A stretch of 64,000 nucleotides of DNA. Origin: Candidatus Uhrbacteria bacterium (GTDB lineage Bacteria > Patescibacteriota > Patescibacteriia > UBA9934). Positions 2,194 to 33,361 of the stretch are shown piece after piece (the first letter of the stretch is position 1; the number at the start of each line of letters is the position of its first letter). Below the pieces are notes generated by a model. It was not told the origin of the DNA, did no database searches, and worked only from the letters and a program-made list of their open reading frames with translations. Both the position numbers and the translations under genes were made by a program. The stretch lies in the NCBI GenBank assembly GCA_963822405.1, contig CAWGHH010000001.1:293373-357372 (forward strand), read 5' to 3'.

Positions 2194-4491
2194 CTACAGC
2201 ACCTCTACGCTTTTCTTCCCGGCACGAACTCGATAATTTCTTGTCTTCTTTCCAATATTGCTTAGCACTTTGTCAGCCAATGGTCGTTCAATAGATTCGG
2301 CGATAACTCGTCTAACATCACGTGCGCCAAATTTAGGGTTTACGGATTTGACCAGTTGTTCAAGCGCTTTTGTATCAGCTTTTAGTGAGATTCCGCGGTT
2401 TTTTAGGCGAGCCTCCAGTTCCTTGATTTCGCGGACGGCAATCTTCTGCATGTCGACGAGCGTCAGAGAGCTGAACAGACAGACGCGATCAATGCGGTTC
2501 AAGAATTCGGCTTTGAAGCTATCTTCAAGAACCGCGCGCATGTCAGTTTTTTCTTTGATAGCTTTGCCAGTGAAGCCTACGGCGCCACGCTCGAATAATT
2601 CTCGACCAGCATTTGAGGTCATGATGATGACAGTATTGCGGAAGTTCACGGGTGTTCCTGTGGCATCGGTAATTGTTCCTTCGTCGAGTATCTGAAGTAG
2701 GAGATGATGAATATCGGCGTGAGCTTTTTCAAGCTCGTCAAATAAAACCACGGAATATGGCCTGGCTTTGACCGCGTCAGTTAATCGCGCGGTTTCGCGG
2801 TAACCAATATAGCCAGGGGGAGAGCCAATAAGTTTGCTGGCACTAAAGCTTTCCGTATATTCGCCCATGTCTAATCTGATCAAGGCCTTTTCATCTTCAA
2901 AAACTTCTGCCGCCACTGCTTTGGCCATTTCGGTTTTACCAACTCCGGAGGGGCCGACGAACATGAATGACGCCAGCGGTCTATCAGTTCTTTGAAAACC
3001 AAGCTTAGCGCGAATAATACTGGAGGCCACGGCCTCTACTGCCTCGGTCTGTGCAAGGACTCGGTTTGCAAGTCTGGCTTTAAGTGTTTTTAGTTTGTCG
3101 CCATCGTCGGACTCGAGCCGTTCAAGCGGGACGCCGGTAACTGTTGCTGCAACTCGCCGTACATCGTCAGTTGTAATGTCGAGTTTTTTGGTTCGGTACG
3201 CGCTACCAACCTCGTCCAGCAGATCAATCGCTTTGTCTGGAAAAGCTTTGTGCGGGAAATATCGGCCAGAGATTTCGACTATAGTCGCAAAGGCTTCTTT
3301 GGCAAATTTTACGCCGTGATGCTTGGCGTAGGCGGGTGCTAGGCCAGCCAGAATCAGTTTGGTTTCTTCGGCTGATGGTTCACGCACAGTAATGGCGGCA
3401 AACCGGCGGGAAAGTGCGCCGTCATCTTCAATGTGCTTTTTGAACTCTTCGCGCGTGGTTGCGCCAATAACGCGAATCTCACCGCGAGCAAGCGCCGGTT
3501 TCATGATGTTCGCTGCGTCCATAGCGCCACTGCCCGAACCTGCGCCGACCAGCGTATGCAGTTCGTCAATAAACAAAACAGTATTTTTTGCTTCTTTCAA
3601 ATCTTCAATCACGTCATGTAATCGTTCTTCAAAGTCGCCTCTGTACATGGCACCGGCCAGCAAAGCCGCCATGTCTAGCATGTAAATTTTTGTGTCTTTG
3701 AGTGCGGTCGGAGCGGTGCCGTCAACAATTCGCTTGGCTAGTCCCTCGACAATAGCTGTTTTGCCAACCCCCGGGTCACCAAGCAAGAGGGGATTATTTT
3801 TTGATTTGCGGGATAAGATGCGAGCGAGTCTATCAATCTCGATGTCGCGACCAATCAATGCGTCGATTTTTTTGACGTGGTCGGCGTGAGTGAGCTCGAC
3901 GCTAAAAAACTGGAGAGCGTTTTGTTCATTTTTCGGCACTTCGTCATGAACATGTCCACATTCTGCGCACGGTTTGGACGCCTCTTTTTGTGCCTCTCTT
4001 GTGCCAATTGGTCTAGTTTCGGCGGGCAAAGCAGGGGCGCGAGTTTGTCTGAAAATATCCGCCAACGCTTCTTCGATTGACGCTGTTTCTACACCAGCTT
4101 GGTCGAGTAATGTGGTGATTGTATGCGGTCGAAGGGCAAGAATTCCGTAAAGCAAATGTTCCGTACTGACAATTTGATGATCGTGCAGATTTGCAGTCAG
4201 CATCGCTTTTTCCATGGCCGCTTTCGCCTCGATTGATAAAAATGGACGTTTTGCTTTGTCTGGTATGCCGAAGGCTGAAGTTCTGCTTGGCTTTTTGAGT
4301 GACTCGATAACTTCTACGTCCAGCCCAGACTTTTTTAGAAGTTCCGCGCCTAAACAGCCTTCTTCCGTGCCAATCGCCCAAAACAAATGCTCAGGCGTAA
4401 TTGCTTCGCTTCCTTCCTCTATAACAAGCGTCAACGCTCTAGTGAGCGCTGCGTTTAGATGAGGCGAAAATTTATCTACAAGTTCAGGCAT
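2194..4491 (-). CDS. clpC: ClpC/ClpA-family AAA+ chaperone ATPase (two nucleotide-binding domains, Clp_N repeats)
   Basis: 765 aa. N-terminal Clp_N-like repeat (PEHLFWAI...). First Walker [19 protein letters not shown], second Walker [20 protein letters not shown]. No long ClpB middle coiled coil. Confidence 0.85.
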
Positions 4492-4494
4492 AGG

Positions 4495-5361
4495 CTAACC
4501 TCCCATTTCTCTTAGGCGTTTAACTCTTTCGGCGACCGGTGGGTGAGTGGCGAACAAGGCTGATACTTTATTGCCAAACGGATTAGCGATGAACAAGTGA
4601 GCGGTAGCTCGATTGGCCTTTTCCATTGGGATGTTTGCACCGGAGATTTTTTCGAGCGCACTCGCGAGTCCTTCTGGGAATCTCGTAAGTAGCGCACCGG
4701 ACGCGTCGGCGAGATACTCGCGTTGTCGTGAAACTGCGAGCTGGATGATCTGTGCGAGGATCGGCGAGAGAATTGAGAGCACAATGCCGATAATTATAAA
4801 GGCAATCATTCCGTCATTTTTCTTGCCACCAAATCTGGCGTGCAAGAAGATATTACTCATGAGCATGATGGCGCCGACGAGCACAACGACAATCGTCATC
4901 ACGCGCAAATCATAGTTTTTGACGTGCGAGAGTTCATGCGCCGCTACGCCTTCTAGTTCTTGCTTGTCGAGAATAGCGAGGAGACCTGTTGTGAACGCAA
5001 TCGACGCTGTCTTTGGATCACGACCAGTCGCAAACGCGTTCGGCGAGGCTTCGTCCATGATGTAGACCTTTGGCATCGGTACGCCGTCTGCTATACAGAG
5101 GTTTTCGACAATGTTCCAAATCTCCGGCGCATCACTTTTCTGAATTTGCTTAGCGCCGTTTACCGCTAGCGCAATCTTGTCAGAAAAGTAATAGCTAAAG
5201 AGGGAATAGAAAGTAGCAAACACCGTCCCAATGACAATCGACGATCCCGCATCAACGTCATTCGCGGCTCCAAAGACTACACTCAAAAGCACGATCACCG
5301 CGCAGGCGATGGCAATCAGAAGCCAAGTTTTTCGCTTGTTCGCGGTGATTTGTGAATACAT
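4495..5361 (-). CDS. htpX: HtpX-like M48 zinc metalloprotease
   Basis: 288 aa. HEXXH motif AAHELSHVKNYD. Multiple TM helices. Typical HtpX layout. Confidence 0.8.
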   Translation of the reverse strand: MYSQITANKRKTWLLIAIACAVIVLLSVVFGAANDVDAGSSIVIGTVFATFYSLFSYYFSDKIALAVNGAKQIQKSDAPEIWNIVENLCIADGVPMPKVYIMDEASPNAFATGRDPKTASIAFTTGLLAILDKQELEGVAAHELSHVKNYDLRVMTIVVVLVGAIMLMSNIFLHARFGGKKNDGMIAFIIIGIVLSILSPILAQIIQLAVSRQREYLADASGALLTRFPEGLASALEKISGANIPMEKANRATAHLFIANPFGNKVSALFATHPPVAERVKRLREMGG

Positions 5362-5977: not shown

Positions 5978-7306
5978 CTACCAGAACATATTTTCAAGGC
6001 TAACGATATTCGCGGTTTGCTTGAGGAGGTAACGCCGGAGATTGCTTATCTAGCTGGGCGAGCAATTGTGCGTAAGACTGGCGCAAAAACGGTCGTAGTT
6101 GGTCGCGACATGCGGTCGACGAGTGAATCTTTGCAGTCTGAGGCTATTCGAGGCATTAAAAGCATGGGTGCGAACGTCATTAACATCGGTTTGACGACTA
6201 CGAGCGTGTTCAATTTTGCAACGTCGAGCATGGGCAAGGTCGATGCCGGCCTAATGGTGACCGCTTCGCATAATCCTGCGGAGTATAACGGTATAAAATT
6301 TGCTGACGGCACTGGTTTGCCGATTCCTGGACCGGCAATTCTCGACGAAATCAACAAAGATAATGAAAAAGTGCACGCCGAGGGCTTAGTGACGGATCAC
6401 GACATTATTGAGGAGTATGTCGAGTTCTGTGTTCGTAACGCGCACTTGTCAGACGTGAAAGGAATGAAGATCGCTGTTGATTACGGAAACGGCATGGGTT
6501 CTATCGCGCTTCGGCCTCTAGCATTTAGGCTCGGCATTGAGCTCACCGAACTTTACGCAGATCCTGACGCACGGTTTCCGAATCATGAAGCGAACCCGAA
6601 CAAGCGCGAGACATTAGCTGACATCGAGAGACTCCTCGCTGGCGGTGAATTTGCATTCGGGGTTGCGCTTGACGGTGACGCTGACCGAATCGGATTCCTC
6701 GATAACATCGGTGCGCCATTGCGAGGTGACGAGGTGCTCGCGCTATTCGCCGCCGACGAACTTGAAAGAAATCCCGGCGCAACAATTATTTATCAACCAA
6801 ACCACACCTGGGCCACGCTCGACGCCATTAATGAACACGGCGGAAAAGGCGTTTTGCGACAAATCGGTCGTACTCGTGTGGTCGAGGGTATGCGTACGGA
6901 ACACGCCCGCTTGGGCGGGGAAGTCTCCAGTCATTTCTTCTTCGCCGAAACCGCTGGCCTCGAGTCTGTCGATTTCGCGTTTTGTAGAATGATCTCAATC
7001 ATTGCGAAAGCAAAAAAACCACTCCACGAAATCTCTGCTCCTCTTCGTAAATATTCAAACAGTTGGGAAGTGAATTTCGAGGTTCACGACAAAGTCGCAG
7101 TGACAAAGCGTGTCGAAGACGCTTTTCTCTCTCAGGCCACGAGCGTCAACAGACTCGACGGCATCCGTTGCGAGTTCGGTCGCGACTGGTGGTTCATCCT
7201 CCGCGCCTCAAACACTGAGCCATTATTGCGTCTCATCGTCGAAGCGACGAGCAGAGAACTGATGGAGAGTAAGAGGGACGAATTAGCTCGAATCATCGCT
7301 ATCTAG
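5972..7306 (+). CDS. phosphomannomutase/phosphoglucomutase family (alpha-D-phosphohexomutase)
   Basis: 444 aa. Active-site phosphoserine loop TASHNPAEYNGIKF. Metal-binding loop DGDADR. Confidence 0.8.
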   Translation: MQLPEHIFKANDIRGLLEEVTPEIAYLAGRAIVRKTGAKTVVVGRDMRSTSESLQSEAIRGIKSMGANVINIGLTTTSVFNFATSSMGKVDAGLMVTASHNPAEYNGIKFADGTGLPIPGPAILDEINKDNEKVHAEGLVTDHDIIEEYVEFCVRNAHLSDVKGMKIAVDYGNGMGSIALRPLAFRLGIELTELYADPDARFPNHEANPNKRETLADIERLLAGGEFAFGVALDGDADRIGFLDNIGAPLRGDEVLALFAADELERNPGATIIYQPNHTWATLDAINEHGGKGVLRQIGRTRVVEGMRTEHARLGGEVSSHFFFAETAGLESVDFAFCRMISIIAKAKKPLHEISAPLRKYSNSWEVNFEVHDKVAVTKRVEDAFLSQATSVNRLDGIRCEFGRDWWFILRASNTEPLLRLIVEATSRELMESKRDELARIIAI

Positions 7307-7321
7307 TACAATCTCTCCATT

Positions 7322-8404
7322 ATGTTGCTCACCATTTTTATTTTTCTTTTAGTTCTTTCTTTGCTTGTTGTTGTTCATGAGCTTGGCCACTATATTGCGG
7401 CGCGGCAGATGGGGATGGATGTGGAGGAGTTTGGGTTTGGTTTTCCGCCACGGTTGTTTGGGCGGAAGGATAAGAATGGCATGATGTGGAGCGTAAACTT
7501 GATTCCGCTTGGTGGTTTTGTGAAGCTAAAGGGTGAGAATGGCGAGAACAGACATGAGACTGGAGCCTTTGCACATAAGAGCATTCCGGCACGTCTGTAT
7601 GTTTTGTTCGCTGGCGTAATCATGAACTTTTTGTTAGCCTGGGTTTTATTCTCGGCCGGTTTTTTGTTCGGCCTCCCGTCAATTATTGAGGGAATAAATT
7701 TTAAGTCGGCCATTATTTCTAATCGCGCCGTGAACGTGATGCAGGTTCTCCCGGATTCGCCAGCGGCTCAAGCGGGAATTGCTGAGGGGGATCAGCTAGT
7801 TACAGTCGACGGCCAAATTTATTCTACCGGTGAAGAAACTCGCACAGCCTTGGCGCCACATGCGGACGGTTCGCCGATTGCCATCACTTTCAAGCATGAC
7901 GGAAAACTTGTTCGCGCTGACATGGTTCCAGAATTTAATGCAGAGGCTGACAAGGCAATCATCGGCGTCGCTTTAGTTGAAACCGGAACCGTTCGCTTTC
8001 CGTTTTACATCGCGCCAATCAAAGGACTTGAGACAACAGCTGGCATGAGTTATGACGTAGTTGGCGCTTTTGCTGGCTTGATTGCCGGCGTATTCCAGCA
8101 TAAGAACGTGGCAGCCGAACTATCTGGTCCAATTGGTATTGCTAATTTAACTGGTCAAGTCGCTCGCCTGGGCTTCTGGCATTTGGTCCAGTTTGCAGCC
8201 ATGTTGTCAGTAAACCTCATGGTTTTGAACGCCTTACCGTTCCCCGCGCTTGATGGTGGCCGAGCCCTGTTTGTCGCCATTGAAGGCATCCGCCGAAAGC
8301 CAAACAGCCTTCAGTTTGAACAAGCTGCCCACACTATTGGCTTTGCGTTGTTGATCTTGCTGGTATTGTTTGTTACATATAAAGATATTGTGAAGTTATT
8401 TTAG
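7322..8404 (+). CDS. rseP: RseP-like site-2 protease (M50 family, PDZ domain)
   Basis: 360 aa. HEXXH in the first TM segment (VVVHELGHYIAARQMG). PDZ-like middle segment. C-terminal TM helices. Confidence 0.8.
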   Translation: MLLTIFIFLLVLSLLVVVHELGHYIAARQMGMDVEEFGFGFPPRLFGRKDKNGMMWSVNLIPLGGFVKLKGENGENRHETGAFAHKSIPARLYVLFAGVIMNFLLAWVLFSAGFLFGLPSIIEGINFKSAIISNRAVNVMQVLPDSPAAQAGIAEGDQLVTVDGQIYSTGEETRTALAPHADGSPIAITFKHDGKLVRADMVPEFNAEADKAIIGVALVETGTVRFPFYIAPIKGLETTAGMSYDVVGAFAGLIAGVFQHKNVAAELSGPIGIANLTGQVARLGFWHLVQFAAMLSVNLMVLNALPFPALDGGRALFVAIEGIRRKPNSLQFEQAAHTIGFALLILLVLFVTYKDIVKLF

Positions 8405-8427
8405 GGTGTAGGGTGTAGCGTGTAGGA
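8402..8427. repeat. left inverted repeat of GT-rich element (TAGGGTGTAGGGTGTAGCGTGTAGG); TAG stops in all three frames; includes the rseP stop codon
   Basis: The reverse complement CCTACACGCTACACCCTA is an exact 18-mer match to the right-end copy at 12841-12858. TAG occurs at offsets 0, 7, 14 and 21. Confidence 0.7.
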
Positions 8428-8437
8428 AGAAGGGAGT

Positions 8438-8848
8438 ATGAAAATACAATCGTACGAAGATCTTGAAGTGTGGAAAAAGTCGATGGATCTCGTCGAGAAG
8501 ATTTATTTGATTACTAAGATGTTTCCGACGGATGAGCGGTTTGGGTTGATCTCGCAGATGCAACGAGCCGCCGTTTCAATTCCAAGTAACATTGCTGAAG
8601 GTTATCGACGTCGAGGAAGAGGGGACTATCTTAAATTTCTTGGGTACGCATATGGTTCGGGAGCTGAGCTAGAAACGCAACTCGAAATTTCCTTTAGATT
8701 GAAGTACTGTATGGAGGCTCGATACACAGAGACAAAATCTTTGCTAACAGAAGTCATGAAAATGTTTAATGTCATGATGTGGCGTCTTGAATCCACCCGC
8801 CCATCTGCGACACCCTACACCCCACGCCCTACCCCCTATGATAAATAA
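8438..8848 (+). CDS. four-helix-bundle protein (TIGR02436 / 23S rRNA intervening-sequence protein family)
   Basis: 136 aa. LEVWKKSMDLVEKIYLITKMFPTDERFGLISQMQRAAVSIPSNIAEGYRRRGRGDYLKFLGYAYGSGAELETQL is the hallmark of the IVS-type four-helix-bundle family. Flanked by inverted GT-rich repeats. Confidence 0.8.
   Translation: MKIQSYEDLEVWKKSMDLVEKIYLITKMFPTDERFGLISQMQRAAVSIPSNIAEGYRRRGRGDYLKFLGYAYGSGAELETQLEISFRLKYCMEARYTETKSLLTEVMKMFNVMMWRLESTRPSATPYTPRPTPYDK
8812..8840. repeat. right inverted repeat of GT-rich element (CGACACCCTACACCCCACGCCCTACCCCCTATG), ending in the pheS ATG
   Basis: CA-rich complement of the left repeat. Near-identical copies at 12828-12860 and 38426-38459. The terminal ATG at 8838-8840 starts pheS. 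Confidence 0.7.
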
Positions 8849-9908
8849 ATTACAAGAACTTGAAACCGAATGTCTCAAAGCCTTCTCGACTATCTCGACG
8901 GCGGCCGAACTTGAAACTACTCGCGTAGCTTTTCTTGGTCGAAAGGGCCGGCTCGCCGACATCATGGCTGACTTGCCAACTTTGTCGCCGGACGAAAAAC
9001 GGGCTGCTGGTCAGAAGGCTAATGAAGTGAAGTCCGCAATAGAAGGCGCGTTTGAAGCTGCAAAAGCCAGACTCGACGCGGCTGAATCTGCATCACGTGC
9101 TGAAAAAGAATGGCTCGACATCTCACTTCCTGGAACCGAACCAGCCGTTGGCCATCTTCACATTACAAGTCAGGCGATAGAAGACATTTCCGATATTTTT
9201 TCGCGCATCGGTTTCGTCAGAGCTCGACATCCAGAAATCGATTGGGATTATTACGCGTTCGAATCTCTCAACATGCCAAAGGATCATCCAGCGCGTGATG
9301 ATTGGGAAACTTTTTTCGTCGAGGGTGAAAATGGGAAGGTTGCGGAAGGCGAAAAGGGTAAAATCGTTCTTACCCCTCATACCAGCAATGCCCAGGTGCG
9401 AGAAATGGAAAAGGGTCAGTTGCCAATCCGCATGATTAACATCGGTAAATGCTACCGCCGACAATCTGATACTCGACATCTTTCCATGTTCCACCAATTC
9501 GAAGGTTTAGTGATCGACAAGACCGCGACTGTGGTCGAGCTCAAGGGCGTTTGCGACTACTTCGCAAAGCAATTTTTCGGTGAAGGCAGGGTAACCCGCC
9601 TACGTCCGTATCATTTCCGTTTCACCGAACCCAGTTTCGAACTCGACATCTCCTGCGGCATGTGCGCGGGAACCGGTTTGGTCGCTGGTGTGAAATGCAA
9701 ACTCTGCAAAGCCGGTTGGCTTGAACTCGGCGGGGCCGGCATGGTGCATCCGAACGTTCTCAAGGCTGGCGGACTTGATCCAAAAGAATACCAAGGCTTC
9801 GCCTTCGGCTGGGGCGTCGAGCGTACCGCTATGATGCGTTCCGGTTTGAACATCGACGATATCCGCATTATGTATAGAAATGACCTGAAGTTCCTTGAAC
9901 AGTTTTAA
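8838..9908 (+). CDS. pheS: phenylalanine--tRNA ligase alpha subunit
   Basis: ORF-track 8787-9908. The likely true start is MINKLQELE at 8838, with the upstream extension lying in the repeat. Class II synthetase core (FRFTEPSFE, GWGVERTAMM, MYRNDLKFL). Confidence 0.85.
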   Translation: MINKLQELETECLKAFSTISTAAELETTRVAFLGRKGRLADIMADLPTLSPDEKRAAGQKANEVKSAIEGAFEAAKARLDAAESASRAEKEWLDISLPGTEPAVGHLHITSQAIEDISDIFSRIGFVRARHPEIDWDYYAFESLNMPKDHPARDDWETFFVEGENGKVAEGEKGKIVLTPHTSNAQVREMEKGQLPIRMINIGKCYRRQSDTRHLSMFHQFEGLVIDKTATVVELKGVCDYFAKQFFGEGRVTRLRPYHFRFTEPSFELDISCGMCAGTGLVAGVKCKLCKAGWLELGGAGMVHPNVLKAGGLDPKEYQGFAFGWGVERTAMMRSGLNIDDIRIMYRNDLKFLEQF

Positions 9909-9910
9909 AT

Positions 9911-10294
9911 GTGGAAAAGGACTTTGATAAATGGAATGTAGTGAAGCAAACACTTCATCATCGACGGCATAAAATGTTTGTAAAAGAACGAGAAGTTTGG
10001 TGGTGTTCGATCGGCGTCAATGTAGGACATGAGGAAAATGGAAAAAATGAGACCTACGAAAGACCGGTGTTGATTCTCAGAAAGATGCAACCGGAACTAT
10101 TCCTCGCGGTTCCATTGTCGACAAAACTCAGAGAATCAATATCACGATTCGAACACCGGAGAAAAGAAAAAAATGAAGCGGTACTCTTGGGTCAGCTGCG
10201 TATACTAAGTACGAGCAGACTTCAGCGCAGAATGTGGCGAATGGCTGAGGGAGAATTTGAGGAAATCAAGAAACAGCTAAAAGATCTCATATAA
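9911..10294 (+). CDS. MazF/PemK-family endoribonuclease toxin-like protein
   Basis: 127 aa. KEREVWWCSIGVNVGHEENGK...RPVLILRK...AVPLSTK...LGQLRILSTSRL follows the MazF/PemK fold pattern (RGD-V..-D-G.E..K.RP.LV...P.TS...QIR..D..RL). Starts 3 nt after the pheS stop. Confidence 0.55.
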   Translation: MEKDFDKWNVVKQTLHHRRHKMFVKEREVWWCSIGVNVGHEENGKNETYERPVLILRKMQPELFLAVPLSTKLRESISRFEHRRKEKNEAVLLGQLRILSTSRLQRRMWRMAEGEFEEIKKQLKDLI

Positions 10295-10383
10295 AATCGA
10301 AACGCGCCCGTATGGGCGCGAATCTCGGGGGCCTTACGGCCATGTGTAATCGCAGTATATCATAGTTTCTGAAAAGTACAAAT

Positions 10384-12810
10384 ATGAACATTCTCGCTTC
10401 GTACAACTGGATTAGAGAGTACCTCAACACGACTTTATCAGCCGACGAGTTCGCAAAAGAGCTGTCACTCAAATCCATGTCCGTTGAAAAAATCGACGCT
10501 CTTTGGGGTAAGTTTGAACACATGGTAGTCGGCGTCATTAAGGAAATCAAAGCGCATCCAAATGCGAATAAACTTCGTATTGCGGTAACCGACATTGGCG
10601 ACAAGACCGTCGAGATCGTCTGCGGAGGATCGAATCTAGAAGTCGGCCAGCGCGTATTTGTCGCACTTCCTGGTGCGAAAGTTAAGTGGCACGGCGAAGG
10701 TGAACTGGTCACGCTCGCTGAAGTAGAAATTCGCGGTGTCAAAAGCATTGGCATGATTTGCGCGCCAGCCGAAGTCGGGTTCGACAAAATTCCTGCGGGC
10801 GATCATGAGATTTGGGACTTGTCGAAAATCACGGACGCAAAAGCTGGCACATTAATCGTTGACGCGCTCGAACTCCAGGACACGATTTTTGACATCGAGG
10901 TCACAACAAACCGCCCAGACTGCATGAGCATTATGGGTCTTGCAAGTGAAGGCGCTGCAGCTGTAGACGGTCATTTCGGTTTCGCTCCTCCCCCTCCACG
11001 CAGTGGAGGGGGTAAGGGGGGAGGACAAACCATTAGCGTGTCGATCGAGTCAAAGAAGTGTTCGCGCTACATGGCGGCCGTAGTTAAGAACGTCAAAGTC
11101 GGTCCATCACCTTGGTGGCTCCAAAAGAAGTTGCTTCTCGCCGGTCATCGTCCAATTAACAACATTGTCGACATCACTAATTTGGTTTTACACGAACTTG
11201 GCCAACCCCTGCATGCATTCGACGCGTCGAAAATTCGCGGTAATCAAATTATTGTTCGTGATGCAAAGAAGGGCGAGAAGATGAAAGCTCTGGACAACAA
11301 AGAATACACGCTCTCAAAGTCTAATTTGGTAATTGCTGACGCCGAAGGGCCAATGGCTGTTGCTGGCGTAATGGGCGGGGAAGTGAGTTCGACAACTAAC
11401 GAAACAACCACAGTCGTCTTTGAAGCAGCGACATTTGATGCCGTATCGGTTCGTCGTACGGCTCGTGATCTGAACTTGTATTCTGACTCGCAACTTGTTT
11501 TTGAAAAAGGTTTATCTACCCAGGCTGTACCAATTGCCATGGCGCGAGCGCTTGAGCTGGTCGAGCAACTAGCCGGGGGAGTTGTCGAGGGTTTGACTGA
11601 TGTTCAACCGAAGGCTTATAAGCCGCTTGTTTTCAAGACCTCGACCAAGAAAATCCGTTCTAGAATTGGCGTTGATGTTTCTGATGAGCAAATTCAAAAG
11701 ATTCTAACAAAGCTCGGCTTCATGCTTGAGGTCAAGGGCTCGACCATCACGGCAACGATTCCTTTCTGGCGCGATCATGACATTGAATCGGAGGTCGACC
11801 TGACCGAAGAAGTCGCTCGCATGTACGGCTATCACAACATGCCGTCGATTCTTCCTGCCGTTACTCCGCCTCCAGCTGTCGACGATATTGCTGTAGTTTG
11901 GGAACGCAAACTTAAGCGCTTACTCGCCTCACTCGGTTACACTGAATTCTTCGGAACGTCGCTCATTGACGGTCGGGATCTTGAGCGTTTCGGTATCACG
12001 CCGCTCGACGCTGTCAAAATCTTGAACCCGCTGGCCGAGGACTTGGCCTACATGCGCCCGACGCTCATTCCGTCGATCTTACGTGACATCGAAAAGAATC
12101 AGGCAACTACCGGCTCGGCCAATATTTTCGAATTATCTCGTGTGCATCTCCCCGACACCCTACACGCTACCCCCTACGCCCTTCCTCTCGAACAGTATCG
12201 CTTAGCTATCGCCGACTATGGCTATGACAACTCCGAAGCCGCTTTTATGGGTCTCAAGGGCACGCTTGAACGACTCGGCAAAGAAACTGGCATTACTTTC
12301 TCTCTTACTCGCGTGAACGAGGCGCCACGTTTCCATCCTGGTCGGGCGGCTGATATTCACGCTGAACTAAACGGCGTTCGAACTCTCGCTGGCATGATGG
12401 GGGAGATTTCACCGGCCGTAGAAAGTGCTTTTGGTCTAGAGAAGCAAGTATTCTTGATCGATCTCAACCTTGAGGCACTTCTTCCGCACCTCAAAAAGTC
12501 TTTGCGCTACGAGCCTCTCACGTCTTTCCCCGTTTCTCGTCGCGATATCTCGTTTGTTGTTAATGAACGCATCGCCTTTGAGGACCTAACATCAGTAATT
12601 GGTGCCTCAACAACTTTACAACTCCACAACTCCATAACTCTCGTCGACATCTACCGCGGTGCCGGCGTAGACAATGGCAAAAAGTCTTTGACGCTATCCT
12701 TAACCTTCTCCGCGGCCGATAGAACCCTAACCAGCGATGAGGTCGAATCCGAAATTAAACGCATTACCACAGCTCTCGAGGGCAAATTCGGCGCAACCAT
12801 GCGTGGGTAG
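10384..12810 (+). CDS. pheT: phenylalanine--tRNA ligase beta subunit
   Basis: 808 aa. N-terminal tRNA-binding (OB) domain (EIVCGGSNLEVGQRVFVALPG). B3/B4 and B5 domains. FELSRVHLP motif. C-terminal FDX-like domain. Confidence 0.85.
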   Translation: MNILASYNWIREYLNTTLSADEFAKELSLKSMSVEKIDALWGKFEHMVVGVIKEIKAHPNANKLRIAVTDIGDKTVEIVCGGSNLEVGQRVFVALPGAKVKWHGEGELVTLAEVEIRGVKSIGMICAPAEVGFDKIPAGDHEIWDLSKITDAKAGTLIVDALELQDTIFDIEVTTNRPDCMSIMGLASEGAAAVDGHFGFAPPPPRSGGGKGGGQTISVSIESKKCSRYMAAVVKNVKVGPSPWWLQKKLLLAGHRPINNIVDITNLVLHELGQPLHAFDASKIRGNQIIVRDAKKGEKMKALDNKEYTLSKSNLVIADAEGPMAVAGVMGGEVSSTTNETTTVVFEAATFDAVSVRRTARDLNLYSDSQLVFEKGLSTQAVPIAMARALELVEQLAGGVVEGLTDVQPKAYKPLVFKTSTKKIRSRIGVDVSDEQIQKILTKLGFMLEVKGSTITATIPFWRDHDIESEVDLTEEVARMYGYHNMPSILPAVTPPPAVDDIAVVWERKLKRLLASLGYTEFFGTSLIDGRDLERFGITPLDAVKILNPLAEDLAYMRPTLIPSILRDIEKNQATTGSANIFELSRVHLPDTLHATPYALPLEQYRLAIADYGYDNSEAAFMGLKGTLERLGKETGITFSLTRVNEAPRFHPGRAADIHAELNGVRTLAGMMGEISPAVESAFGLEKQVFLIDLNLEALLPHLKKSLRYEPLTSFPVSRRDISFVVNERIAFEDLTSVIGASTTLQLHNSITLVDIYRGAGVDNGKKSLTLSLTFSAADRTLTSDEVESEIKRITTALEGKFGATMRG
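12152..12182. repeat. in-frame copy of the GT/CA-rich repeat inside pheT (CCGACACCCTACACGCTACCCCCTACGCC)
   Basis: Shares CGACACCCTAC and ACGCTACNCCCTA with the right-end repeats at 8812 and 12828. Encodes PDTLHATPYALP in PheT. Confidence 0.55.
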
Positions 12811-12827: not shown

Positions 12828-12860
12828 CGACACCCTACTCCCTACACGCTACACCCTATG
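12828..12860. repeat. solo right-end repeat (CGACACCCTACTCCCTACACGCTACACCCTATG) after the pheT stop, ending in the ATG of the next gene
   Basis: Near-identical to 8812-8840 and 38426-38459. A degenerate TAG-containing stretch (GGGTAGTGGTATTATTTAGTAAA) immediately precedes it. Confidence 0.65.
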
Positions 12861-13172
12861 TTAGGAACCCAAGACATTCTCTTCATCGTTCTCGCCTTCT
12901 GCGCTCTCTGGTTCACGGCCTTCCTCTGTTGGCTACTCTTTCAAGCCGCTGGACTTCTTAAGCGCTTGCATGGATTAGTCGACGAACTCAAGACTAAGCT
13001 CGACAACCTAGAAGCCAACATCTCCGGGATGAAAAGAAAATTCGACGGCAACATTGCACTCATAACTGGAATTGCTGATGGAGTACGAAGAATTATCGAG
13101 GCTATGAAGGGAAGAGATGGGTTTACTTCAACCAAAAAAACGTATAAGGGAGATGATGAAGAGATGCTCTAG
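12858..13172 (+). CDS. small membrane protein (N-terminal TM helix, coiled-coil tail), hypothetical
   Basis: ORF-track 12810-13172. Likely start MLGTQDIL at 12858, with the first 16 codons lying in the repeat. One TM helix (IVLAFCALWFTAFLCWLLF). Immediately upstream of the zeta-toxin gene. Confidence 0.4.
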   Translation: MLGTQDILFIVLAFCALWFTAFLCWLLFQAAGLLKRLHGLVDELKTKLDNLEANISGMKRKFDGNIALITGIADGVRRIIEAMKGRDGFTSTKKTYKGDDEEML

Positions 13173-13193: not shown

Positions 13194-13910
13194 ATGTTGC
13201 TTTCGGTTGATGAGATCGCAATTAAGGAACGGGCGGACGCGCAAGCGCGAGAGATGAAGACTCGGATCGCGAAAGAAATGACGGATAAGACTATCTATTT
13301 ACCCGACGAATTTCCTGTTTCGGTTTTTATGGCCGGCTCTCCGGGTGCGGGGAAGACCGAGTCATCTCGAAACCTTATTGCGAGGTTGACTGGTGACGGT
13401 CGTGCGGTTCTGAGGATAGATACCGATGAGTTGCGTTCGTTGTTTTCGGAGTATAACGGCCATAACTCACATCTCTTCATGAGCGCAACTTCTTTTCTCG
13501 CAGACAAGATTCACGATCTTGCTTTGAAGAACGGACAGAGCTTTGTTTTTGACGGAACTCTTTCGAACATAAAACGCTCTCGCGAGAATATTGAGCGATC
13601 TCTATCGCGGATAAGGTTTGTCCAGATCGTGTATGTGTATCAAGATCCCTTATTGGCTTGGAGTTTTGTAAAGGCTCGCGAGGCAAAAGATGGGAGGGCT
13701 ATTCCAAAGAGTGATTTTATAGCGAAGTTCTTTGCCGCAAGAGAGAATGTAGATGCTTTAAAGAAGGAGTTTGGTGATAAAATCCGAGTAGATATGGTCG
13801 TGAAGAATATTGATGGTTCTGACTATAGTTACAGCGAAAATATCGACGTTGTTGACAGTCAGATTTTTGAAAAGTACACTAAAATTCAACTTGAAGGTTT
13901 GATTGACTAA
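13194..13910 (+). CDS. zeta-toxin family P-loop kinase
   Basis: 238 aa. Walker A FMAGSPGAGKTE. Conserved FVFDGTLSN (xxEGT/DGT motif of zeta/PezT UDP-GlcNAc kinases). Confidence 0.6.
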   Translation: MLLSVDEIAIKERADAQAREMKTRIAKEMTDKTIYLPDEFPVSVFMAGSPGAGKTESSRNLIARLTGDGRAVLRIDTDELRSLFSEYNGHNSHLFMSATSFLADKIHDLALKNGQSFVFDGTLSNIKRSRENIERSLSRIRFVQIVYVYQDPLLAWSFVKAREAKDGRAIPKSDFIAKFFAARENVDALKKEFGDKIRVDMVVKNIDGSDYSYSENIDVVDSQIFEKYTKIQLEGLID

Positions 13911-13915
13911 TTGCT

Positions 13916-14086
13916 ATGTCTACAGGAATTATTGCCGCTTTACGGTCTGGAGGCTCTGACCGCTCGAGCGCATTTTCAAAGTTTTTTCGCGAGGCATCTT
14001 CAACTGAAAAGAAGAAGGTTTTTCTGGATGTTGCAAAAAAAGCCAGTCAAGATCAGCGCGATGTCATGAAAGCACTTCGTCCATAG
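13916..14086 (+). CDS. small hypothetical ORF (56 aa) downstream of the zeta-toxin gene
   Basis: ATG at 13916 to TAG at 14084-14086 (MSTGIIAALRSGGSDRSS...VMKALRP). Below the ORF-track length cutoff. No recognisable motif. Confidence 0.2.
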   Translation: MSTGIIAALRSGGSDRSSAFSKFFREASSTEKKKVFLDVAKKASQDQRDVMKALRP

Positions 14087-14440
14087 AAATAAAAGGAGTC
14101 CCTGTCGGCAATGGCGGGGATTTTTGTTTTGTAAGGCTTATTACCGGAGCCGGTAAAAAGTATTCAGGATAGTTAGAGGTATTTTGCTGTAACAAAAAAA
14201 CCGATCAAATGATCGGGTGCTTTGTAGAAGTCGCGTCTCAAGAAGTCGTCCTCTTCAGCTTAGACCCGAGGAGCCCCCCGGGGAACACTGAAGCGCTTCA
14301 AGAGGTATTATTGCAACTTCGCCTCAAATATATCTCAAAATATCGGCTCCGTAAACTTACCCACAATGTACCTAATGAGCAATCTATATTACTTCATCGT
14401 CGGCAGGAACGAGAGTTGAGGAATATTCCGTTTACGCTAC

Positions 14441-14482
14441 TTGACTAGTGTAAACAAAAGTATATAATCTGTTTATACTAGC
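14441..14482 (+). promoter_or_regulatory. sigma70-like promoter (TTGACT-N16-TATAAT) with palindromic operator flanking the -10, upstream of the Fic gene
   Basis: TTGACT at 14441-14446 and TATAAT at 14463-14468. Inverted repeat TAGTGTAAACA (14446-14456) / TGTTTATACTA (14470-14480) brackets the -10. Confidence 0.45.
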
Positions 14483-14486
14483 TATT

Positions 14487-15650
14487 TTGCATAAACAAAA
14501 AAATTATATGCCAAAAAACATATTGGGTAATTTGAAGAAACATAAGAGCGGGTATCAATACCTTTCACTTTCGGCATTCCCGCCTGAGTTAAAGGAGGTG
14601 CTTTCTGGTGCATTATTAGAGAAGGCTGATTATGCACAATTTTGCTTGGGCAAGCTTTCCGGTATTACTCACCTTCTTCCGGATGTAGATTTTTTCATTT
14701 CTTCGTATATAACTAAAGACGCTACCTCTTCTTCGCAGATCGAGGGAACAAAAGCCACTATGGCCGACGCCTTTGAATATGCGGCAAATCCCAACGACGA
14801 TAATTCTGATGCCGATGATATTTCGCATTATATTTCCGCACTTCATTACGGTCTTAAGCGACTAGGCGGAGATAATTTCCCCTTCGCTTTGCGTTTTATC
14901 AAGGAGCTTCATAAAGAATTAATGAAGAATGCAAGGTCGACTCATTTTTCCGATCCAGGTGAGTTTCGCACGTCTCAAAACTGGATTGGTGGCACTACTC
15001 CAACCAATGCTAGTTTTGTGCCTCCTGCGCCGGAAGAACTCACTCGACCATTAAAAGATCTTGAGAGCTTCATACACGTCAGACACTTTCATCCGGTACT
15101 TCAAGCCGGCTTGCTTCATGCACAGTTCGAAACCATTCACCCATTTTTGGACGGTAACGGAAGAACGGGCCGGTTATTGATTACATTCTATTTGATTCAG
15201 CAAAGACTTCTTGAGAGACCGGTGCTGTTTTTGTCTTCTTACTTTAAGAAGCATCAGAAGCTCTACTATCAGAGGCTTTCCGGATACCACCATGGTGAAA
15301 TCGGTCCATGGCTTGATTTCTTTCTTGATGGAATTATCGAGACTGCAGAGCAGGCTATTTCGGTATCTATCGCCGTTACTGCCTTGAGAGATAAGGATTT
15401 AAAAACGGTAGCGACTCTCGGAAAATCAGTCTCTGAAGTTTCTTCGAATATTCTTCAGCGCTTATACCAGAATCCGATCGTGTCTACAGCGCTAATAGAA
15501 CAGTGGACCGGTTACACTAGACCAGGTGTTATCAAAATCATTGATAAGTTGATGAAAGTGGGAATTCTAGAACTTTATCGCAAGGGGGAGGGTACGAAAC
15601 CGTCTGTGTATATTCATCGTGAATATGTAAACTTGTTTGCTGAAAAGTAG
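14487..15650 (+). CDS. Fic family protein (AMPylase/phosphocholine-transferase fold) with C-terminal winged-helix domain
   Basis: 387 aa. Fic motif HPFLDGNGRTGRLLITFYL. The start may be the second ATG at 14508 (MPKNILG). Confidence 0.8.
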   Translation: MHKQKNYMPKNILGNLKKHKSGYQYLSLSAFPPELKEVLSGALLEKADYAQFCLGKLSGITHLLPDVDFFISSYITKDATSSSQIEGTKATMADAFEYAANPNDDNSDADDISHYISALHYGLKRLGGDNFPFALRFIKELHKELMKNARSTHFSDPGEFRTSQNWIGGTTPTNASFVPPAPEELTRPLKDLESFIHVRHFHPVLQAGLLHAQFETIHPFLDGNGRTGRLLITFYLIQQRLLERPVLFLSSYFKKHQKLYYQRLSGYHHGEIGPWLDFFLDGIIETAEQAISVSIAVTALRDKDLKTVATLGKSVSEVSSNILQRLYQNPIVSTALIEQWTGYTRPGVIKIIDKLMKVGILELYRKGEGTKPSVYIHREYVNLFAEK

Positions 15651-15710
15651 GAATGTGCAATTAGTGCACATTCTAAGCAAACAATCCGATCTTCCGACCG
15701 GATTTTTGTT

Positions 15711-16244
15711 TTAAGGTGAATTCCGAATTTTCGCCCTAATTTGTTTATGGTTTGGGATTGTTTGTTCAACCAGTTTCCAAAACCTCACCGAGTGATTCAT
15801 CTGCGCCAAATGACACAGTTCATGGACGACAATATAGTCCACTTGTTCCTGTGTCAGATGAACAATCCGATAATTAAAACTCAGCGTTCCCGTACTGGTA
15901 CAACTACCCCAACGAGTTTTCTGATTTCTGATAGATACTTTCTTCCAGGACAACTTATAGAATTTATTGAAATAGTCGAGTCTCGACTCCACAAGTTCAA
16001 GCGCCCTATCTTTTAGCCGACCATAATCAGCCCTCGTCCCGCCACGTAGTAGACTTGGCGGTCGAGCCTTGGCTTTGGCGACGTGTTCAACTATCCACGC
16101 CGACTTCTGTTCGACGAACTGATTGATCATCCATGCTGGCACGCGCTTGTGTGCGGTGACCGTACACGCCCCATCCGCGCCAATGCGAATACGTATCCCA
16201 CGCGAGCGGGGGTGGCGTTTTAGTGCGAACTCGACGGAGGGCAT
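15711..16244 (-). CDS. DUF45/YgjP-like HExxH metal-dependent hydrolase
   Basis: 177 aa. VVHELCHLAQMNHSVRFWKLV matches the DUF45 signature. Divergent from hsdM. Confidence 0.65.
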   Translation of the reverse strand: MPSVEFALKRHPRSRGIRIRIGADGACTVTAHKRVPAWMINQFVEQKSAWIVEHVAKAKARPPSLLRGGTRADYGRLKDRALELVESRLDYFNKFYKLSWKKVSIRNQKTRWGSCTSTGTLSFNYRIVHLTQEQVDYIVVHELCHLAQMNHSVRFWKLVEQTIPNHKQIRAKIRNSP

Positions 16245-16361
16245 AGCGTGGACATGGTATCAGTAAGGCGATTAAAATTGAACCTCGATTTCTTGCGTCA
16301 TATGTGGGAGAATGGCGTACAGTGCGGATATCCATTCGCGTAGCATATAAACAGTCCAGAT

Positions 16362-17921
16362 ATGACCAAAGAACAAGAACGTTCAGAGCTGCACCGTGCC
16401 ATTTGGCAAATTGCTAATGATCTTCGAGGAAGCGTGGATGGGTGGGATTTTAAGCAATATGTGCTTGGAATGCTTTTTTATCGGTTTATCAGCGAGAATT
16501 TAACGAATTACATTAATTCCGAGGAGCGTCGCACGGGAAAGAAGGATTTTGATTACGCCACACTTTCAGATAAGGAGGCTGAATTTGGTCGAGCCGATAC
16601 GGTGCAGGAGAAAGGTTTTTATATTCCGCCGAGGGATCTTTTTGTTAACGTTCGCAGTAAAGCTAGAAATAACCCCAATCTCAACGAATCACTGGTAAAT
16701 GTTTTTCGAGATATTGAGAGTTCCGCTAAGGGATTTGAAAGTGAAGACGATATTAAGGGATTATTTCAGGATCTCGACGTTAACTCAGCCAAGCTTGGTA
16801 ATACTGTAGAACAACGAAATCAAAAGCTTGTAAAGCTTCTTGAGGCTATTGGCGACCTTCGGCTTGGTAACTATTCGGACAATAGTATTGATGCTTTCGG
16901 CGACGCATATGAGTTCCTCATGACCATGTATGCATCGAGTGCAGGAAAGTCCGGGGGAGAGTTCTATACCCCGCAGGAAGTGAGCGAGCTTCTTGCCGAA
17001 ATTACCACTGTCGGCAAAAAAGAAGTAAATAAAGTGTATGACCCAGCGTGCGGATCTGGTTCTTTGCTTTTGAAGTTTGCCAAGGTGCTCGGAAAAGAAA
17101 ATGTTCGACAAGGTTTCTATGGTCAGGAGATTAATCTCACCACCTATAACCTCTGTCGTATCAACATGTTCTTGCACGACATTAACTACAATAATTTTGA
17201 CATTGCTCTTGGCGACACGTTGACCGATCCAAAGCATTGGGACGAAGAACCTTTTGACGCCATTGTTTCTAACCCGCCTTACTCAATTAACTGGGAAGGC
17301 GACGCTAATCCGCTCCTCATTAATGATCCTCGATTTGCGCCCGCCGGTGTACTCGCGCCAAAGAGTAAGGCTGATCTCGCGTTTACCATGCACATGCTTT
17401 CATGGCTTTCTACGAGTGGCACCGCTGCGATTGTTGAGTTCCCTGGTGTTCTCTATCGTGGTGGTGCAGAGCAGAAAATCAGAAAATATCTTGTAGACAA
17501 TAACTACGTTGATGCCGTTATTCAGCTTCCGCCTGATTTGTTCTTTGGTACTACTATTGCTACCTGTATTATCGTAATCAAGAAGAGCAAGAAAGATAAT
17601 AAAGTGCTATTTATTGATGCTTCAGCTGAATTTGCGAGAGGCGGGAACAAAAATAAGCTGTCAGATGTTAATCGAAAGAAAATATTGGACGCTTTCATTT
17701 CTCGTCAGGACGCTGAATATTTCGCAAAACTCGTCGACAACCAGGTAGTAACAGAAAACGATTACAACATCGCCGTATCAAGTTATGTGGTAGCGGAGGA
17801 TACACGGGAGGTCATCGATATCACAGAGCTCAATAAGAAAATTACCGGCATTGTTGCGCGCGAGAATGAGTTGCGCATTGCAATTGACGAGATTGTGGCG
17901 GATATTGAGGGAGTGAAATAG
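16362..17921 (+). CDS. hsdM: type I restriction-modification system DNA methyltransferase subunit
   Basis: 519 aa. N-terminal HsdM_N. Motif I DPACGSGSLL. Motif IV SNPPYS (N6-adenine MTase). Confidence 0.9.
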   Translation: MTKEQERSELHRAIWQIANDLRGSVDGWDFKQYVLGMLFYRFISENLTNYINSEERRTGKKDFDYATLSDKEAEFGRADTVQEKGFYIPPRDLFVNVRSKARNNPNLNESLVNVFRDIESSAKGFESEDDIKGLFQDLDVNSAKLGNTVEQRNQKLVKLLEAIGDLRLGNYSDNSIDAFGDAYEFLMTMYASSAGKSGGEFYTPQEVSELLAEITTVGKKEVNKVYDPACGSGSLLLKFAKVLGKENVRQGFYGQEINLTTYNLCRINMFLHDINYNNFDIALGDTLTDPKHWDEEPFDAIVSNPPYSINWEGDANPLLINDPRFAPAGVLAPKSKADLAFTMHMLSWLSTSGTAAIVEFPGVLYRGGAEQKIRKYLVDNNYVDAVIQLPPDLFFGTTIATCIIVIKKSKKDNKVLFIDASAEFARGGNKNKLSDVNRKKILDAFISRQDAEYFAKLVDNQVVTENDYNIAVSSYVVAEDTREVIDITELNKKITGIVARENELRIAIDEIVADIEGVK

Positions 17922-17924
17922 CCT

Positions 17925-18419
17925 ATGGAAGATCAACCAAACAATGAAATCGTTATCTATACCGGGGACGGCGGTCAACCCGTTATTCAGGTGCGTATTG
18001 TGGGGGAGACAGTCTGGCTAACTCAGGCGCAGCTGGCTGAGCTTTTCGGCACAACCAAGCAGAATATTAGCCTTCACATACAAAATATTTTTGAGGAGGG
18101 CGAGCTGGCTCCCCGAGCAACTGTCAAGGAATACTTGATAGTTCAAACAGAGGGAAATAGAGAGGTTTCCCGCCAAATAGATCATTACAATCTCGACCTC
18201 ATTATATCCGTTGGATATCGAATAAAATCCCAAATTGCGACACATTTTAGACAATGGGCCACGGCGCGGCTTCGGGAATATATTGTCAAAGGATTTACGA
18301 TGGATGACGAGCGTTTGGAAAACACTGGTGGCCAGTTGCGCAGATTCCTATATAAGTATAACTTCGAGCTAATCACCCATTTTTTTCAATGTTTTCCACG
18401 CCTTCTTCGTTGTGGATAA
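17925..18419 (+). CDS. RhuM-family virulence-protein N-terminal fragment (truncated paralog of the 29947-30912 RhuM-Doc protein)
   Basis: 164 aa. DLIISVGYRIKSQIATHFRQWATARLREYIVKGFTMDDERL aligns with AIISVGYRVNSVTATKFRQWATKTLRQHITKGYTINPKVI at 29947+. Lacks the C-terminal half. Confidence 0.5.
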   Translation: MEDQPNNEIVIYTGDGGQPVIQVRIVGETVWLTQAQLAELFGTTKQNISLHIQNIFEEGELAPRATVKEYLIVQTEGNREVSRQIDHYNLDLIISVGYRIKSQIATHFRQWATARLREYIVKGFTMDDERLENTGGQLRRFLYKYNFELITHFFQCFPRLLRCG

Positions 18420-18443
18420 CCTAAGCCGGGTATAATTATAGAT

Positions 18444-27492: not shown

Positions 27493-27514
27493 ATTGATTT
27501 TATTCACGCTTATA

Positions 27515-27650
27515 GCCCCAAAACCGTGAAAAAGTAGTAAAAAATGGCATTCTGTCACGGTTATGGCTCGTAAATCGTGACAAAAGTGCATTTTATTGCA
27601 TTCTGTCACGGTTATGTTGCCAAAACCGTGACAGTAGTGTATAATGCTGA
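27515..27650 (+). promoter_or_regulatory. promoter (TTGCCA-N17-TATAAT) with multiple CGTGACA-core operator-like repeats upstream of the second Fic gene
   Basis: 19-mer GCATTCTGTCACGGTTATG occurs exactly twice (27547-27565 and 27599-27617). Inverted partner AAAACCGTGACAG (27622-27634) sits in the spacer. A further half-site AAATCGTGACAAAAG lies at 27573-27587. TATAAT at 27640-27645. Confidence 0.45.
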
Positions 27651-28538: not shown

Positions 28539-28551
28539 TGTTGGTTAGCCT

Positions 28552-33348: not shown

Positions 33349-33361
33349 CAATGGCCCGGGG

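Follow-up and report, generated by a model that had tools for sequence, protein, structure and literature searches.

An intervening-sequence-type four-helix-bundle gene between inverted heptamer arrays at an rseP-pheS junction

The subject of this analysis is a small cassette at the junction between rseP and pheS in a 64-kb stretch of bacterial DNA, hereafter the window (G+C content 47%). From the PheS homologues, the host is judged to be a member of the Patescibacteria, or candidate phyla radiation (CPR), close to Candidatus Uhrbacteria. The cassette includes a single gene, encoding a four-helix-bundle (4HB) protein of the 23S rRNA intervening sequence (IVS) type, and a heptamer array, or arm, at each end. 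All features are on the plus strand, and the order is rseP-left arm-4HB gene-right arm-pheS, as follows. rseP, encoding an M50 site-2 protease with a PDZ domain (Pfam PF02163, E 1.6e-57), extends from 7322 to 8404. The left arm (8402–8426) has 3.6 units of the heptamer TAGGGTG, called by Tandem Repeats Finder (TRF; period 7, 3.6 copies), and reads TAGGGTG TAGGGTG TAGCGTG TAGG. The rseP stop codon, TAG at 8402–8404, belongs to the first unit, and the TAGs at 8402, 8409, 8416, and 8423 stop every reading frame. Thus, the left end opens with the rseP stop and carries TAG in three frames, as the initial annotation had it. By sequence reading, a purine-rich tract resembling a Shine-Dalgarno (SD) sequence, AGGAAGAAGGGAGT (8424–8437), leads from the left arm to the ATG of the 4HB gene; such a tract is missing from most other genes of the window. 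The 4HB gene (8438–8848) encodes a 136-residue protein of the 23S_rRNA_IVP/S23p/Avd-like family (PF05635, E 1.4e-38). The right arm (8808–8838), defined by TRF and by minimum free energy (MFE) pairing, has 4.1 units of CTACACC-type heptamers. It is the reverse complement of the left arm and reads CGACACC CTACACC CCACGCC CTACCCC CTA. Its last base is the A of the pheS ATG (8838–8840), so that a C/A-rich inverse of the left end runs into the start of pheS, again as first described. pheS itself (PF01409 and PF02912) extends from 8838 to 9908. The claim that a 136-residue IVS-type gene lies between the repeats is right as to the gene and needs amending at its 3′ end. That is, the open reading frame (ORF) takes its last ~13 codons (..TPYTPRPTPYDK) from the right arm, and its stop codon, TAA at 8846–8848, is located 11 nt inside pheS.

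The two arms are complementary at 81% of positions over 31 nt and at 94% over 16 nt, the value varying between 81 and 94% by register. In both the MFE and the centroid RNA fold, the segment from 8395 to 8426 pairs with that from 8814 to 8845 (z = -3.0). The 15-mer GGGTGTAGGGTGTAG, with up to 3 mismatches, is found 18 times in the window, against 0.56 expected, and none of 100 shuffles reached 18. Together, the count and the fold argue that the similarity of the arms is no by-product of GT-richness, an explanation that the initial annotation had raised against itself. The cassette thus has an ORF within terminal inverted repeats that form a long stem (31-nt arms), a hallmark of IVSs. No rRNA is detected in the window by Rfam, and the cassette lies between rseP and pheS, so it is not within a 23S or 16S helix.

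The 4HB protein matches PF05635 with 131.8 bits, against a cut-off of 33.8, over model positions 1–105 of 106. The match to the bacterial Avd family (bAvd, PF22296) is weak, with an E of 3.8e-5 that falls under the curated cut-off. Relatives of solved structure are 2GSC (XCC0516; E 3e-26), which is a pentameric protein, and 2RLD. Despite thousands of members and solved structures, we know of no function for the IVS/S23p family outside the Avd proteins of diversity-generating retroelements (DGRs). The motif G..R...S...N..E, conserved in the family (PMC3936711; from Lin et al. as cited there), is present in the window protein as FGLISQMQRAAVSIPSNIAEG, and residues S47, P49, N51, and I52–G55 are invariant across a 30-sequence 4HB alignment. 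The nearest homologue, in the relative L001, is 91% identical, with a pN of 0.059 and a pS of 0.73 (saturated). The 4HB gene is under strong purifying selection. Its location outside rRNA had been regarded as an oddity. That view does not hold: such a location is the norm for the family, which has thousands of database matches, and genes for IVS proteins (IVPs) are found inside cas operons (PMC3936711). IVP genes also occur at scattered sites within the 16S and 23S genes of CPR bacteria (PMC11270868).

To compare the junction among relatives, contigs were gathered via PheS and 4HB homologues; these are fragments of genomes only. The gene order PGM-rseP-pheS-pheT is kept in all of the relatives' contigs examined. 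The rseP-pheS junction displays five states among relatives whose PheS proteins are 81–96% identical. In the first, found in the window and in L001, a type 1 4HB gene is flanked by GGGTGTA arms. In the second, found in L086 and in L087/L088, a type 2 4HB gene, the product of which is 55–63% identical to the window protein, is flanked by arms of GGGAGTR/GGCAGTR units (GGSAGTR); the ends are still TAGGG...CCCTATG. In L003 (9893–10000; PheS 93% identical to that of the window), the spacer is an unrelated 108-nt hairpin, GTCATTCTGAGCGGAGCGAAGAATC...GATCCTTCGTCGCTCGGAGCTCCTCAGGATGAC. In L004/L005 (L004 9924–10000; PheS 89%), it is an unrelated 77-nt hairpin, TCCCACTCCATCCCACCCC...GGGGTAGGGCGGGATGGA, with the C-rich arm first. 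In the fifth state, one relative with PheS 81% identical has a 17-nt spacer. Thus, L003 and L004/L005 have rseP followed by pheS without an intervening 4HB gene and without such arms. The closest pair is L086 and L003 (PheS 96% and RseP C-terminus 99% identical); the cassette is present in L086 and absent from L003. Sporadic presence among close relatives is a second hallmark of IVSs. As a separate observation, the rseP-pheS spacer seems to attract hairpin elements generally.

Among cassettes of one type, the divergence of the 4HB gene keeps pace with that of pheS. For the window and L001, identity in amino acids and nucleotides is 91% and 80.6% for the 4HB gene and 91% and 78.8% for pheS. Between L086 and L087, the corresponding values are 79% and 74.7% for the 4HB gene and 80.6% and 71.8% for pheS. 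Across types, between the window and L086, PheS is 95% identical and the 4HB protein just 63%. This co-divergence, together with the low pN and the saturated pS, argues that the 4HB gene has long been a functional resident, replaced or lost in certain lineages. Judged from these sequence comparisons, the junction is a site of gain, loss, or replacement; the cassette is no fresh insertion, nor is it an ancestral gene that has stayed fixed. The proposal of a small insertion element is therefore borne out insofar as presence and absence are polymorphic among relatives, and is not borne out as a simple recent insertion, given the co-divergence and the purifying selection. The cassette was also proposed to supply both a stop codon to the upstream gene and a start codon to the downstream gene. 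The first is so: rseP ends with TAG in the cassette-bearing genomes and with TGA, at the same position, in the cassette-free ones. The second is not: the ATG is pheS's own, since the CTATGAT context and the PheS N-terminus MI(N/K).LQEL are also present in cassette-free relatives. In L001, there are 5 extra nt between the right arm and the pheS ATG.

The arms themselves are conserved. The window and L001 have the same left arm save for one extra unit, and their right arms match at 29 of 31 positions, so that the arms are ~94–100% identical. As synonymous sites are saturated between these two genomes, the near-identity argues that the primary sequence of the arms is constrained, beyond their complementarity. 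Left and right arms also co-vary: when they are scored against each other, scores within a type range from 11.5 to 20.5 and those across types from 6.5 to 14.5.

Copies of the arms also recur elsewhere in the window, at three sites. The first is an empty pair. Its left arm (38343–38373, plus strand) begins with the TAG stop of the ORF at 37125–38345, and the last base of its right arm (38427–38457, plus strand) is the A of the start codon, ATG, of a thrS-like gene (38457–39719; Pfam tRNA-synt_2b/tRNA_SAD). Between the arms are ~53 nt and no gene, and the pair is predicted to fold (z = -3.8). The second is a solo right-type arm (12828–12858, plus strand), directly ahead of the start codon, ATG, of the gene that follows pheT; the matching spacer of L004 is the same, minus these ~30 nt. 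The third is a right-type arm (12152–12182, plus strand) within the pheT coding sequence, where it is in frame and encodes part of a variable loop (..PDTLHATPYALP..). The same loop in the L003 pheT (12964–12988) is encoded by an array of a different heptamer, AACCNGC x3.6 as against CTACNCC, of the same length. All three right arms that precede genes end with CCCTATG. Arm type goes with gene type: the window has type 1 arms only, the type 2 genomes L086 and L087 have an empty type 2 pair in the pheS-pheT spacer, and the 21-kb cassette-free loci have neither arm type. Thus, a gene lies between inverted copies of a genome-dispersed repeat, and the repeat type matches the gene type, as in REPtrons, in which a gene for a REP-associated transposase (RAYT) lies between inverted repetitive extragenic palindromic (REP) sequences and REPs and BIMEs are dispersed in the genome. 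The encoded protein matches PF05635 only and is not a Y1 transposase of the RAYT kind. We note separately that most genes of the window lack an SD sequence, and that several neighbors are joined by TAG(C)CTATG-like junctions (for example, 4491–4495, 17921–17925, and 28538–28552). The TAGGG...CCCTATG ends of the arms mimic this native punctuation.

The design extends across the family. One genome per GTDB species was scanned with the 30-sequence 4HB alignment, giving 80 loci; the statistics that follow are based on 81 4HB loci. The phyla and classes represented are CPR, Bacteroidota, Acidobacteriota, Verrucomicrobiota, Gammaproteobacteria, Clostridia, Planctomycetota, Desulfobacterota, and Gemmatimonadota. 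By eye, most of the 4HB genes have a tandem array of short units before them and its reverse complement after them, the unit being specific to the locus. For each gene, the 120 nt on its upstream side were compared with the 180 nt on its downstream side and the best inverted match was scored, the controls being mismatched-locus pairs and 272 further genes from these loci. The 4HB genes have a median score of 14.5, as against 7.5 for mismatched loci, and 63 of the 81 loci exceed the 95th percentile of that control. The other genes of the same loci have a median of 8.0 (Mann-Whitney p = 8e-28). Periods of 7 or 14 are dominant, and a period of 8 is also found. On the sense strand, left arms are poor in C (G 594, T 558, A 523, C 203), and 51% of them close all three frames, in comparison with 10% of shuffles. 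The upstream gene's stop codon is within the left arm at 36 of 63 loci, a co-oriented downstream gene starts at -8 to +25 nt of the right arm at 41 of 63, and a convergent gene's stop is within the right arm at 14 of 63. The 4HB ORF reads into the right arm at just 12 of the 63.

Arrays of a locus's own unit are also found farther out in its flanks (63 matches, versus 11 in the control), frequently in the form of empty pairs (L007, L023, L054, L057). In L002, two 4HB genes located 4 kb apart each have their own, different unit. The inverted-array design is shared by 21 of 29 loci on viral contigs. Three of these IMG/VR contigs (L212–L214; match at ~2501) encode 4HB proteins 47% identical to that of the window and have GGGTGTAGGG-type arms, AGGTTTTAGGGTGTAGGG and CCCTACACCCTAAAACCT, the unit of which is close to the window's own. 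Cassettes on viral contigs could represent a route of horizontal spread. As a side observation, in six CPR genomes from different candidate phyla (L007, L012, L033, L037, L049, and L080; mostly at ~3001), the cassette precedes the same small gene (MQFKVPQFIEVEDKIFGPL...) and follows a gene ending ..DPYRE.., which would make the position a recurrent hot spot or else a shared site of long standing. A separate metagenome scan with TAGGGTGTAGSNNGTAG gave 80 loci (G+C 0.30–0.72), mostly long (TAGGGTG)n satellites from unrelated organisms; none had a 4HB ORF, and the scan is uninformative about the 4HB family.

Xanthomonas provides the link to repeats already described. In X. campestris and X. citri, the orthologues of XCC0516 (L209/L210/L211, ~2928–3433) are located between accB and accC. 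The gene has GGGAATCGGGAGTGGAGAATCGGGAATCGG on its left and, on its right, CCCATTCCCCATTCTCGACTCCCTATTCCC, which directly adjoins the accC ATG; that is, the gene is bracketed by GGGAATC arrays and their complement. A 4HB gene of Pseudoxanthomonas (L056, 2960–3402) has the same accB-accC arrangement. The annotated N-terminus of XCC0516 (MENRESAKR) is, we observe, encoded by the left arm. GGGAATC, published as a 'G-quadruplex' heptamer repeat, is enriched in Xanthomonas, with 186 sites in X. campestris pv. campestris (Xcc), of which 70 are convergent inverted pairs (PMC4692102). TAACTGA arrays of Beggiatoaceae, cyanobacteria, and Bacteroidetes end 1 nt before starts that lack an SD sequence, and overlap upstream stops (PMC4679880). 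Taxa rich in such heptamers are Xanthomonas, Nostoc (GGGGA(C/T)T, the short tandemly repeated repetitive (STRR) sequences), Beggiatoaceae/Chromatiaceae, and Bacteroidetes (PMC4692102, PMC4679880). Like these dispersed heptamers, the window's arms are 7 nt in period, lineage-specific, mostly intergenic, present solo or as inverted pairs, and placed at stops and SD-less starts, with all frames closed. Unlike the dispersed heptamers as published, one pair here encloses a 4HB gene. Neither of the two papers (PMC4692102, PMC4679880) mentions S23, four-helix, or intervening, and neither links the repeats to a 4HB gene.

The reading that we favor, with moderate confidence, is that the element is an IVS-type gene-in-a-hairpin cassette in an mRNA context, with the PF05635 gene in the loop and the inverted heptamer arrays as the stem. 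The proposed sequence of events is as follows. The 4HB gene would be co-transcribed with rseP and pheS. Co-transcription is taken as the default because no promoter- or terminator-like signal is seen within the element: a scan of 7200–10400 found none on the plus strand, a weak form of evidence. In the polycistronic transcript, the arms would form a ~30-bp stem. By analogy with rRNA IVSs, the stem may be a substrate for RNase III, so that the 4HB message would be cut out of the transcript or shielded from the cistrons on either side. The units, which bear stops and are not a multiple of 3 in length, would close incoming frames at the stem boundary, with the left arm doing so in the sense direction and the right arm in the antisense direction. 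Frame closure of this kind would allow operons of essential genes to tolerate the cassette. The C/A-rich right arm may serve the downstream gene as a leader without an SD sequence. The 4HB protein, on the strength of its homology to Avd, probably binds its own arms. Avd is a pentamer that binds RNA (bioRxiv 10.1101/2023.10.23.563531).

Two features were rejected as general. Three-frame stops are common, yet they are missing from several high-GC arm types and do not define the cassettes. Likewise, translational coupling between the 4HB gene and the downstream gene, which corresponds to the re-initiation suggested in the initial annotation, is not a general mechanism, since the 4HB stop overlaps the next start at 1 of 41 co-oriented loci, that of the window.

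Several results weigh against the gene-in-a-hairpin reading. Solo arms, and arms internal to pheT, are incapable of acting through a hairpin. At 18 of the 81 loci, no significant inverted flanks are found in the tested windows, and in L078 (Faecalibacter) and L079 (Gaetbulibacter) the arrays are direct rather than inverted (GGGACTGGGAACTGG...; GTGAGAGGTGAA...). The GGGAATC arms of Xanthomonas and the GGCGGGC arms of Gemmatimonadaceae have no stops, and the coupling to pheS is peculiar to the window. Mismatches between arms are G:U in 69 cases and A:C in 61 (p = 0.54). There is thus no sense-strand bias towards G:U, and pairing at the RNA level is not told from pairing at the DNA level or from a copy mechanism. 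A signature search of the 64-kb window for rnc, the gene for RNase III, gave a spurious hit only. Finally, no target-site duplication, transposase, or recombinase is visible for the cassette; comparison of occupied and empty sites gives no clear target-site duplication, the relatives, at ~80% nucleotide identity, being too diverged for breakpoints to be placed.

The closest known system is the rRNA IVS. IVSs with an S23p/IVP ORF are present in the 23S rRNA genes of Leptospira, Coxiella burnetii, Brucella, and Haemophilus. The Coxiella IVS has a 28-bp terminal inverted-repeat stem that RNase III cleaves; its S23p ORF is preceded by tandem GACAGAT heptamers in variable copy number and by an AGAAGA tract comparable to the window's SD-like tract (PMC4990558). 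The window cassette and the rRNA IVSs have in common a PF05635 ORF in the loop of a terminal inverted-repeat stem, tandem heptamers ahead of that ORF, a purine-rich weak SD sequence, and a sporadic distribution (PMC4990558). Unlike an rRNA IVS, the window cassette is at a protein-gene junction, rseP-pheS, rather than in 23S helix 25 or 45, and its arms are themselves heptamer arrays that carry stops. In contrast to the Coxiella copy, which is decaying and probably untranslated, the window 4HB gene is under purifying selection, as described above. In the strict sense the cassette is not of the rRNA-IVS class, being outside rRNA; every other testable hallmark is present. It also resembles miniature inverted-repeat elements such as the Correia elements of Neisseria and the palindromic elements of Rickettsia, in that short inverted repeats are tolerated beside and within genes, one arm being in frame in pheT. 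It differs from them in having no identifiable target-site duplication or transposase family, and in being made of tandem arrays with a lineage-wise turnover of the unit.

The alternative that survives best is a cognate system of the REPtron kind, with the hairpin secondary. Here, the 4HB protein would be the trans-acting partner of the dispersed heptamers, binding and then regulating, maintaining, or spreading the arrays. One unit might be bound per protomer of a pentameric ring, and the copy around the protein's own gene would be a 'home' copy, as for RAYTs and their REPs. We consider this possible, though we doubt that it is the better account; it is also mutually compatible with the gene-in-a-hairpin reading. 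The likeness to REPtrons is in a single gene bracketed by a short inverted repeat that is dispersed between genes, as singletons and inverted pairs, and matched in type to the gene. The matching speaks for it: the window's three further sites carry arms of its resident type, the empty pairs of L086 and L087 are of theirs, the cassette-free loci have neither, and the two 4HB genes of L002 each have their own unit. Pairing alone would not require the constraint seen on the primary sequence of the arms. In addition, the Xanthomonas 4HB gene is flanked by the very heptamer that is dispersed in Xcc (PMC4692102), the published heptamer-rich taxa (PMC4692102, PMC4679880) are taxa with 4HB genes in the survey, and Avd binds RNA as a pentamer. 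The co-occurrence could, however, equally come from a spread of arms through gene conversion or slippage, the gene being merely inside one of the pairs. Unlike the Y1 (IS200/IS605-type) transposase of a REPtron, the 4HB protein is a helical bundle; we know of no catalytic motif in its fold, and without one it could not mobilize DNA alone. The repeats, too, are tandem heptamer arrays rather than imperfect palindromes.

A second alternative is that the arms are ordinary intergenic repeats serving punctuation or translation control, comparable to TAACTGA in Beggiatoaceae, and that the 4HB gene is an old resident associated with them by accident. The solo and empty arms do adjoin start and stop codons at other junctions, in a genome that seldom uses SD sequences and often has TAG-CCTATG junctions, and arrays positioned 1 nt before starts and overlapping upstream stops have been described (PMC4679880). 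The co-divergence of the 4HB gene with pheS within each type would also suit an old resident. An incidental association is nevertheless improbable: it is found across many phyla and strongly above neighboring genes, the unit and the gene type change together at the same locus, and the arms are missing from this junction in cassette-free relatives. Fragmentary data already point to arrays being preferentially paired around PF05635 genes.

The 4HB fold of the window protein is homologous to that of the Avd of DGRs (bAvd, PDB 4DWL), a positively charged pentamer that binds structured RNA; unlike Avd, it has no adjacent reverse transcriptase, template repeat (TR), or variable repeat (VR), and its match to the IVP model is strong. 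That the cassette is a DGR remnant or component, its 4HB protein an Avd working with a reverse transcriptase, is very unlikely and was rejected: no family occurs in DGR loci more often than PF05635 (PMC10053308) and there is the weak PF22296 match, but no reverse transcriptase and no TR/VR pair are present within ~10 kb, such direct repeats as were found being short, and syntenic relatives have no reverse transcriptase either. The cassette's neighbors encode PGM, RseP, PheS, a MazF-like protein, PheT, an unknown ORF, a zeta toxin, Fic, YgjP, and HsdM.

Beyond the gene-in-a-hairpin reading of this locus, we suggest, as a tentative and rather speculative extension, that PF05635 proteins and the lineage-specific dispersed heptamers (GGGAATC, STRR, TAACTGA, and TAGGGTG) constitute one pan-bacterial system. 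The 4HB gene would be nested in a cognate inverted pair, and an Avd-like pentamer would recognize the arrays, as RNA or DNA, at other junctions, where they would set stop/start punctuation, the processing of RNA, or translation independent of an SD sequence. On this view, the IVS in its classical form would be the same cassette landed in an rRNA helix.

Other features of the window are as follows. Between pheS and pheT is a solitary PemK/MazF-like toxin gene (9911–10294, plus strand; PF02452, E 4e-9), with no antitoxin evident in the 90-nt spacer between it and pheT. The gene is missing from L003, L004, and L087; L086 and L087 have the empty type 2 heptamer hairpin in this spacer. pheT itself includes a second short-period C/A-rich array, with an 8-nt period (12606–12640, plus strand), CAACTTTA CAACTCCA CAACTCCA TAACTCTC, that encodes ..TTLQLHNSI.. 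and amounts to an insertion of 4 amino acids with respect to L003 and L004 (2 with respect to L087). Downstream of pheT, from 13194 to 19787, is a toxin/defense island with a zeta toxin, Fic/DOC, a YgjP-like metallopeptidase, the type I restriction-modification protein HsdM, and RhuM; its content differs from that of the same place in L003 and L004. A DUF3800-V RNA (Rfam RF02964, 55 bits) is at 14226–14321 on the minus strand. The spacer ahead of the ORF at 27654–28538 has, at 27504–27633, 2.5 copies of a 51-nt unit that contains a palindrome (TCACGGTT..AACCGTGA; TRF score 141). A SAM riboswitch (RF00162, 59 bits) at 33058–33154, minus strand, is upstream of the minus-strand gene at 32070–33026, and the 136-residue ORF that overlaps it (33050–33460, minus strand) is probably spurious.

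The literature, which we have covered incompletely, yielded no description of PF05635 genes flanked across the family by inverted heptamer arrays, and an earlier description is possible. The family-wide heptamer-hairpin design and its link to dispersed heptamer repeats merit further attention. To our knowledge, the dispersed heptamer repeats of Xanthomonas, cyanobacteria, and sulfur bacteria are unexplained. The locus and the survey suggest that these repeats and the 4HB family belong together. On the practical side, the arrays may be mistaken for CRISPR-like or satellite repeats, and the 4HB gene for a Cas-associated gene. The work also provides testable ideas: that RNase III processes mRNA hairpins, that a pentameric 4HB protein binds heptamer arrays, and that C/A-rich arrays act as leaders without an SD sequence. 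For the bacteria that carry the cassettes, the design would be one that tolerates insertion into essential operons, rseP-pheS here and accB-accC in Xanthomonas.

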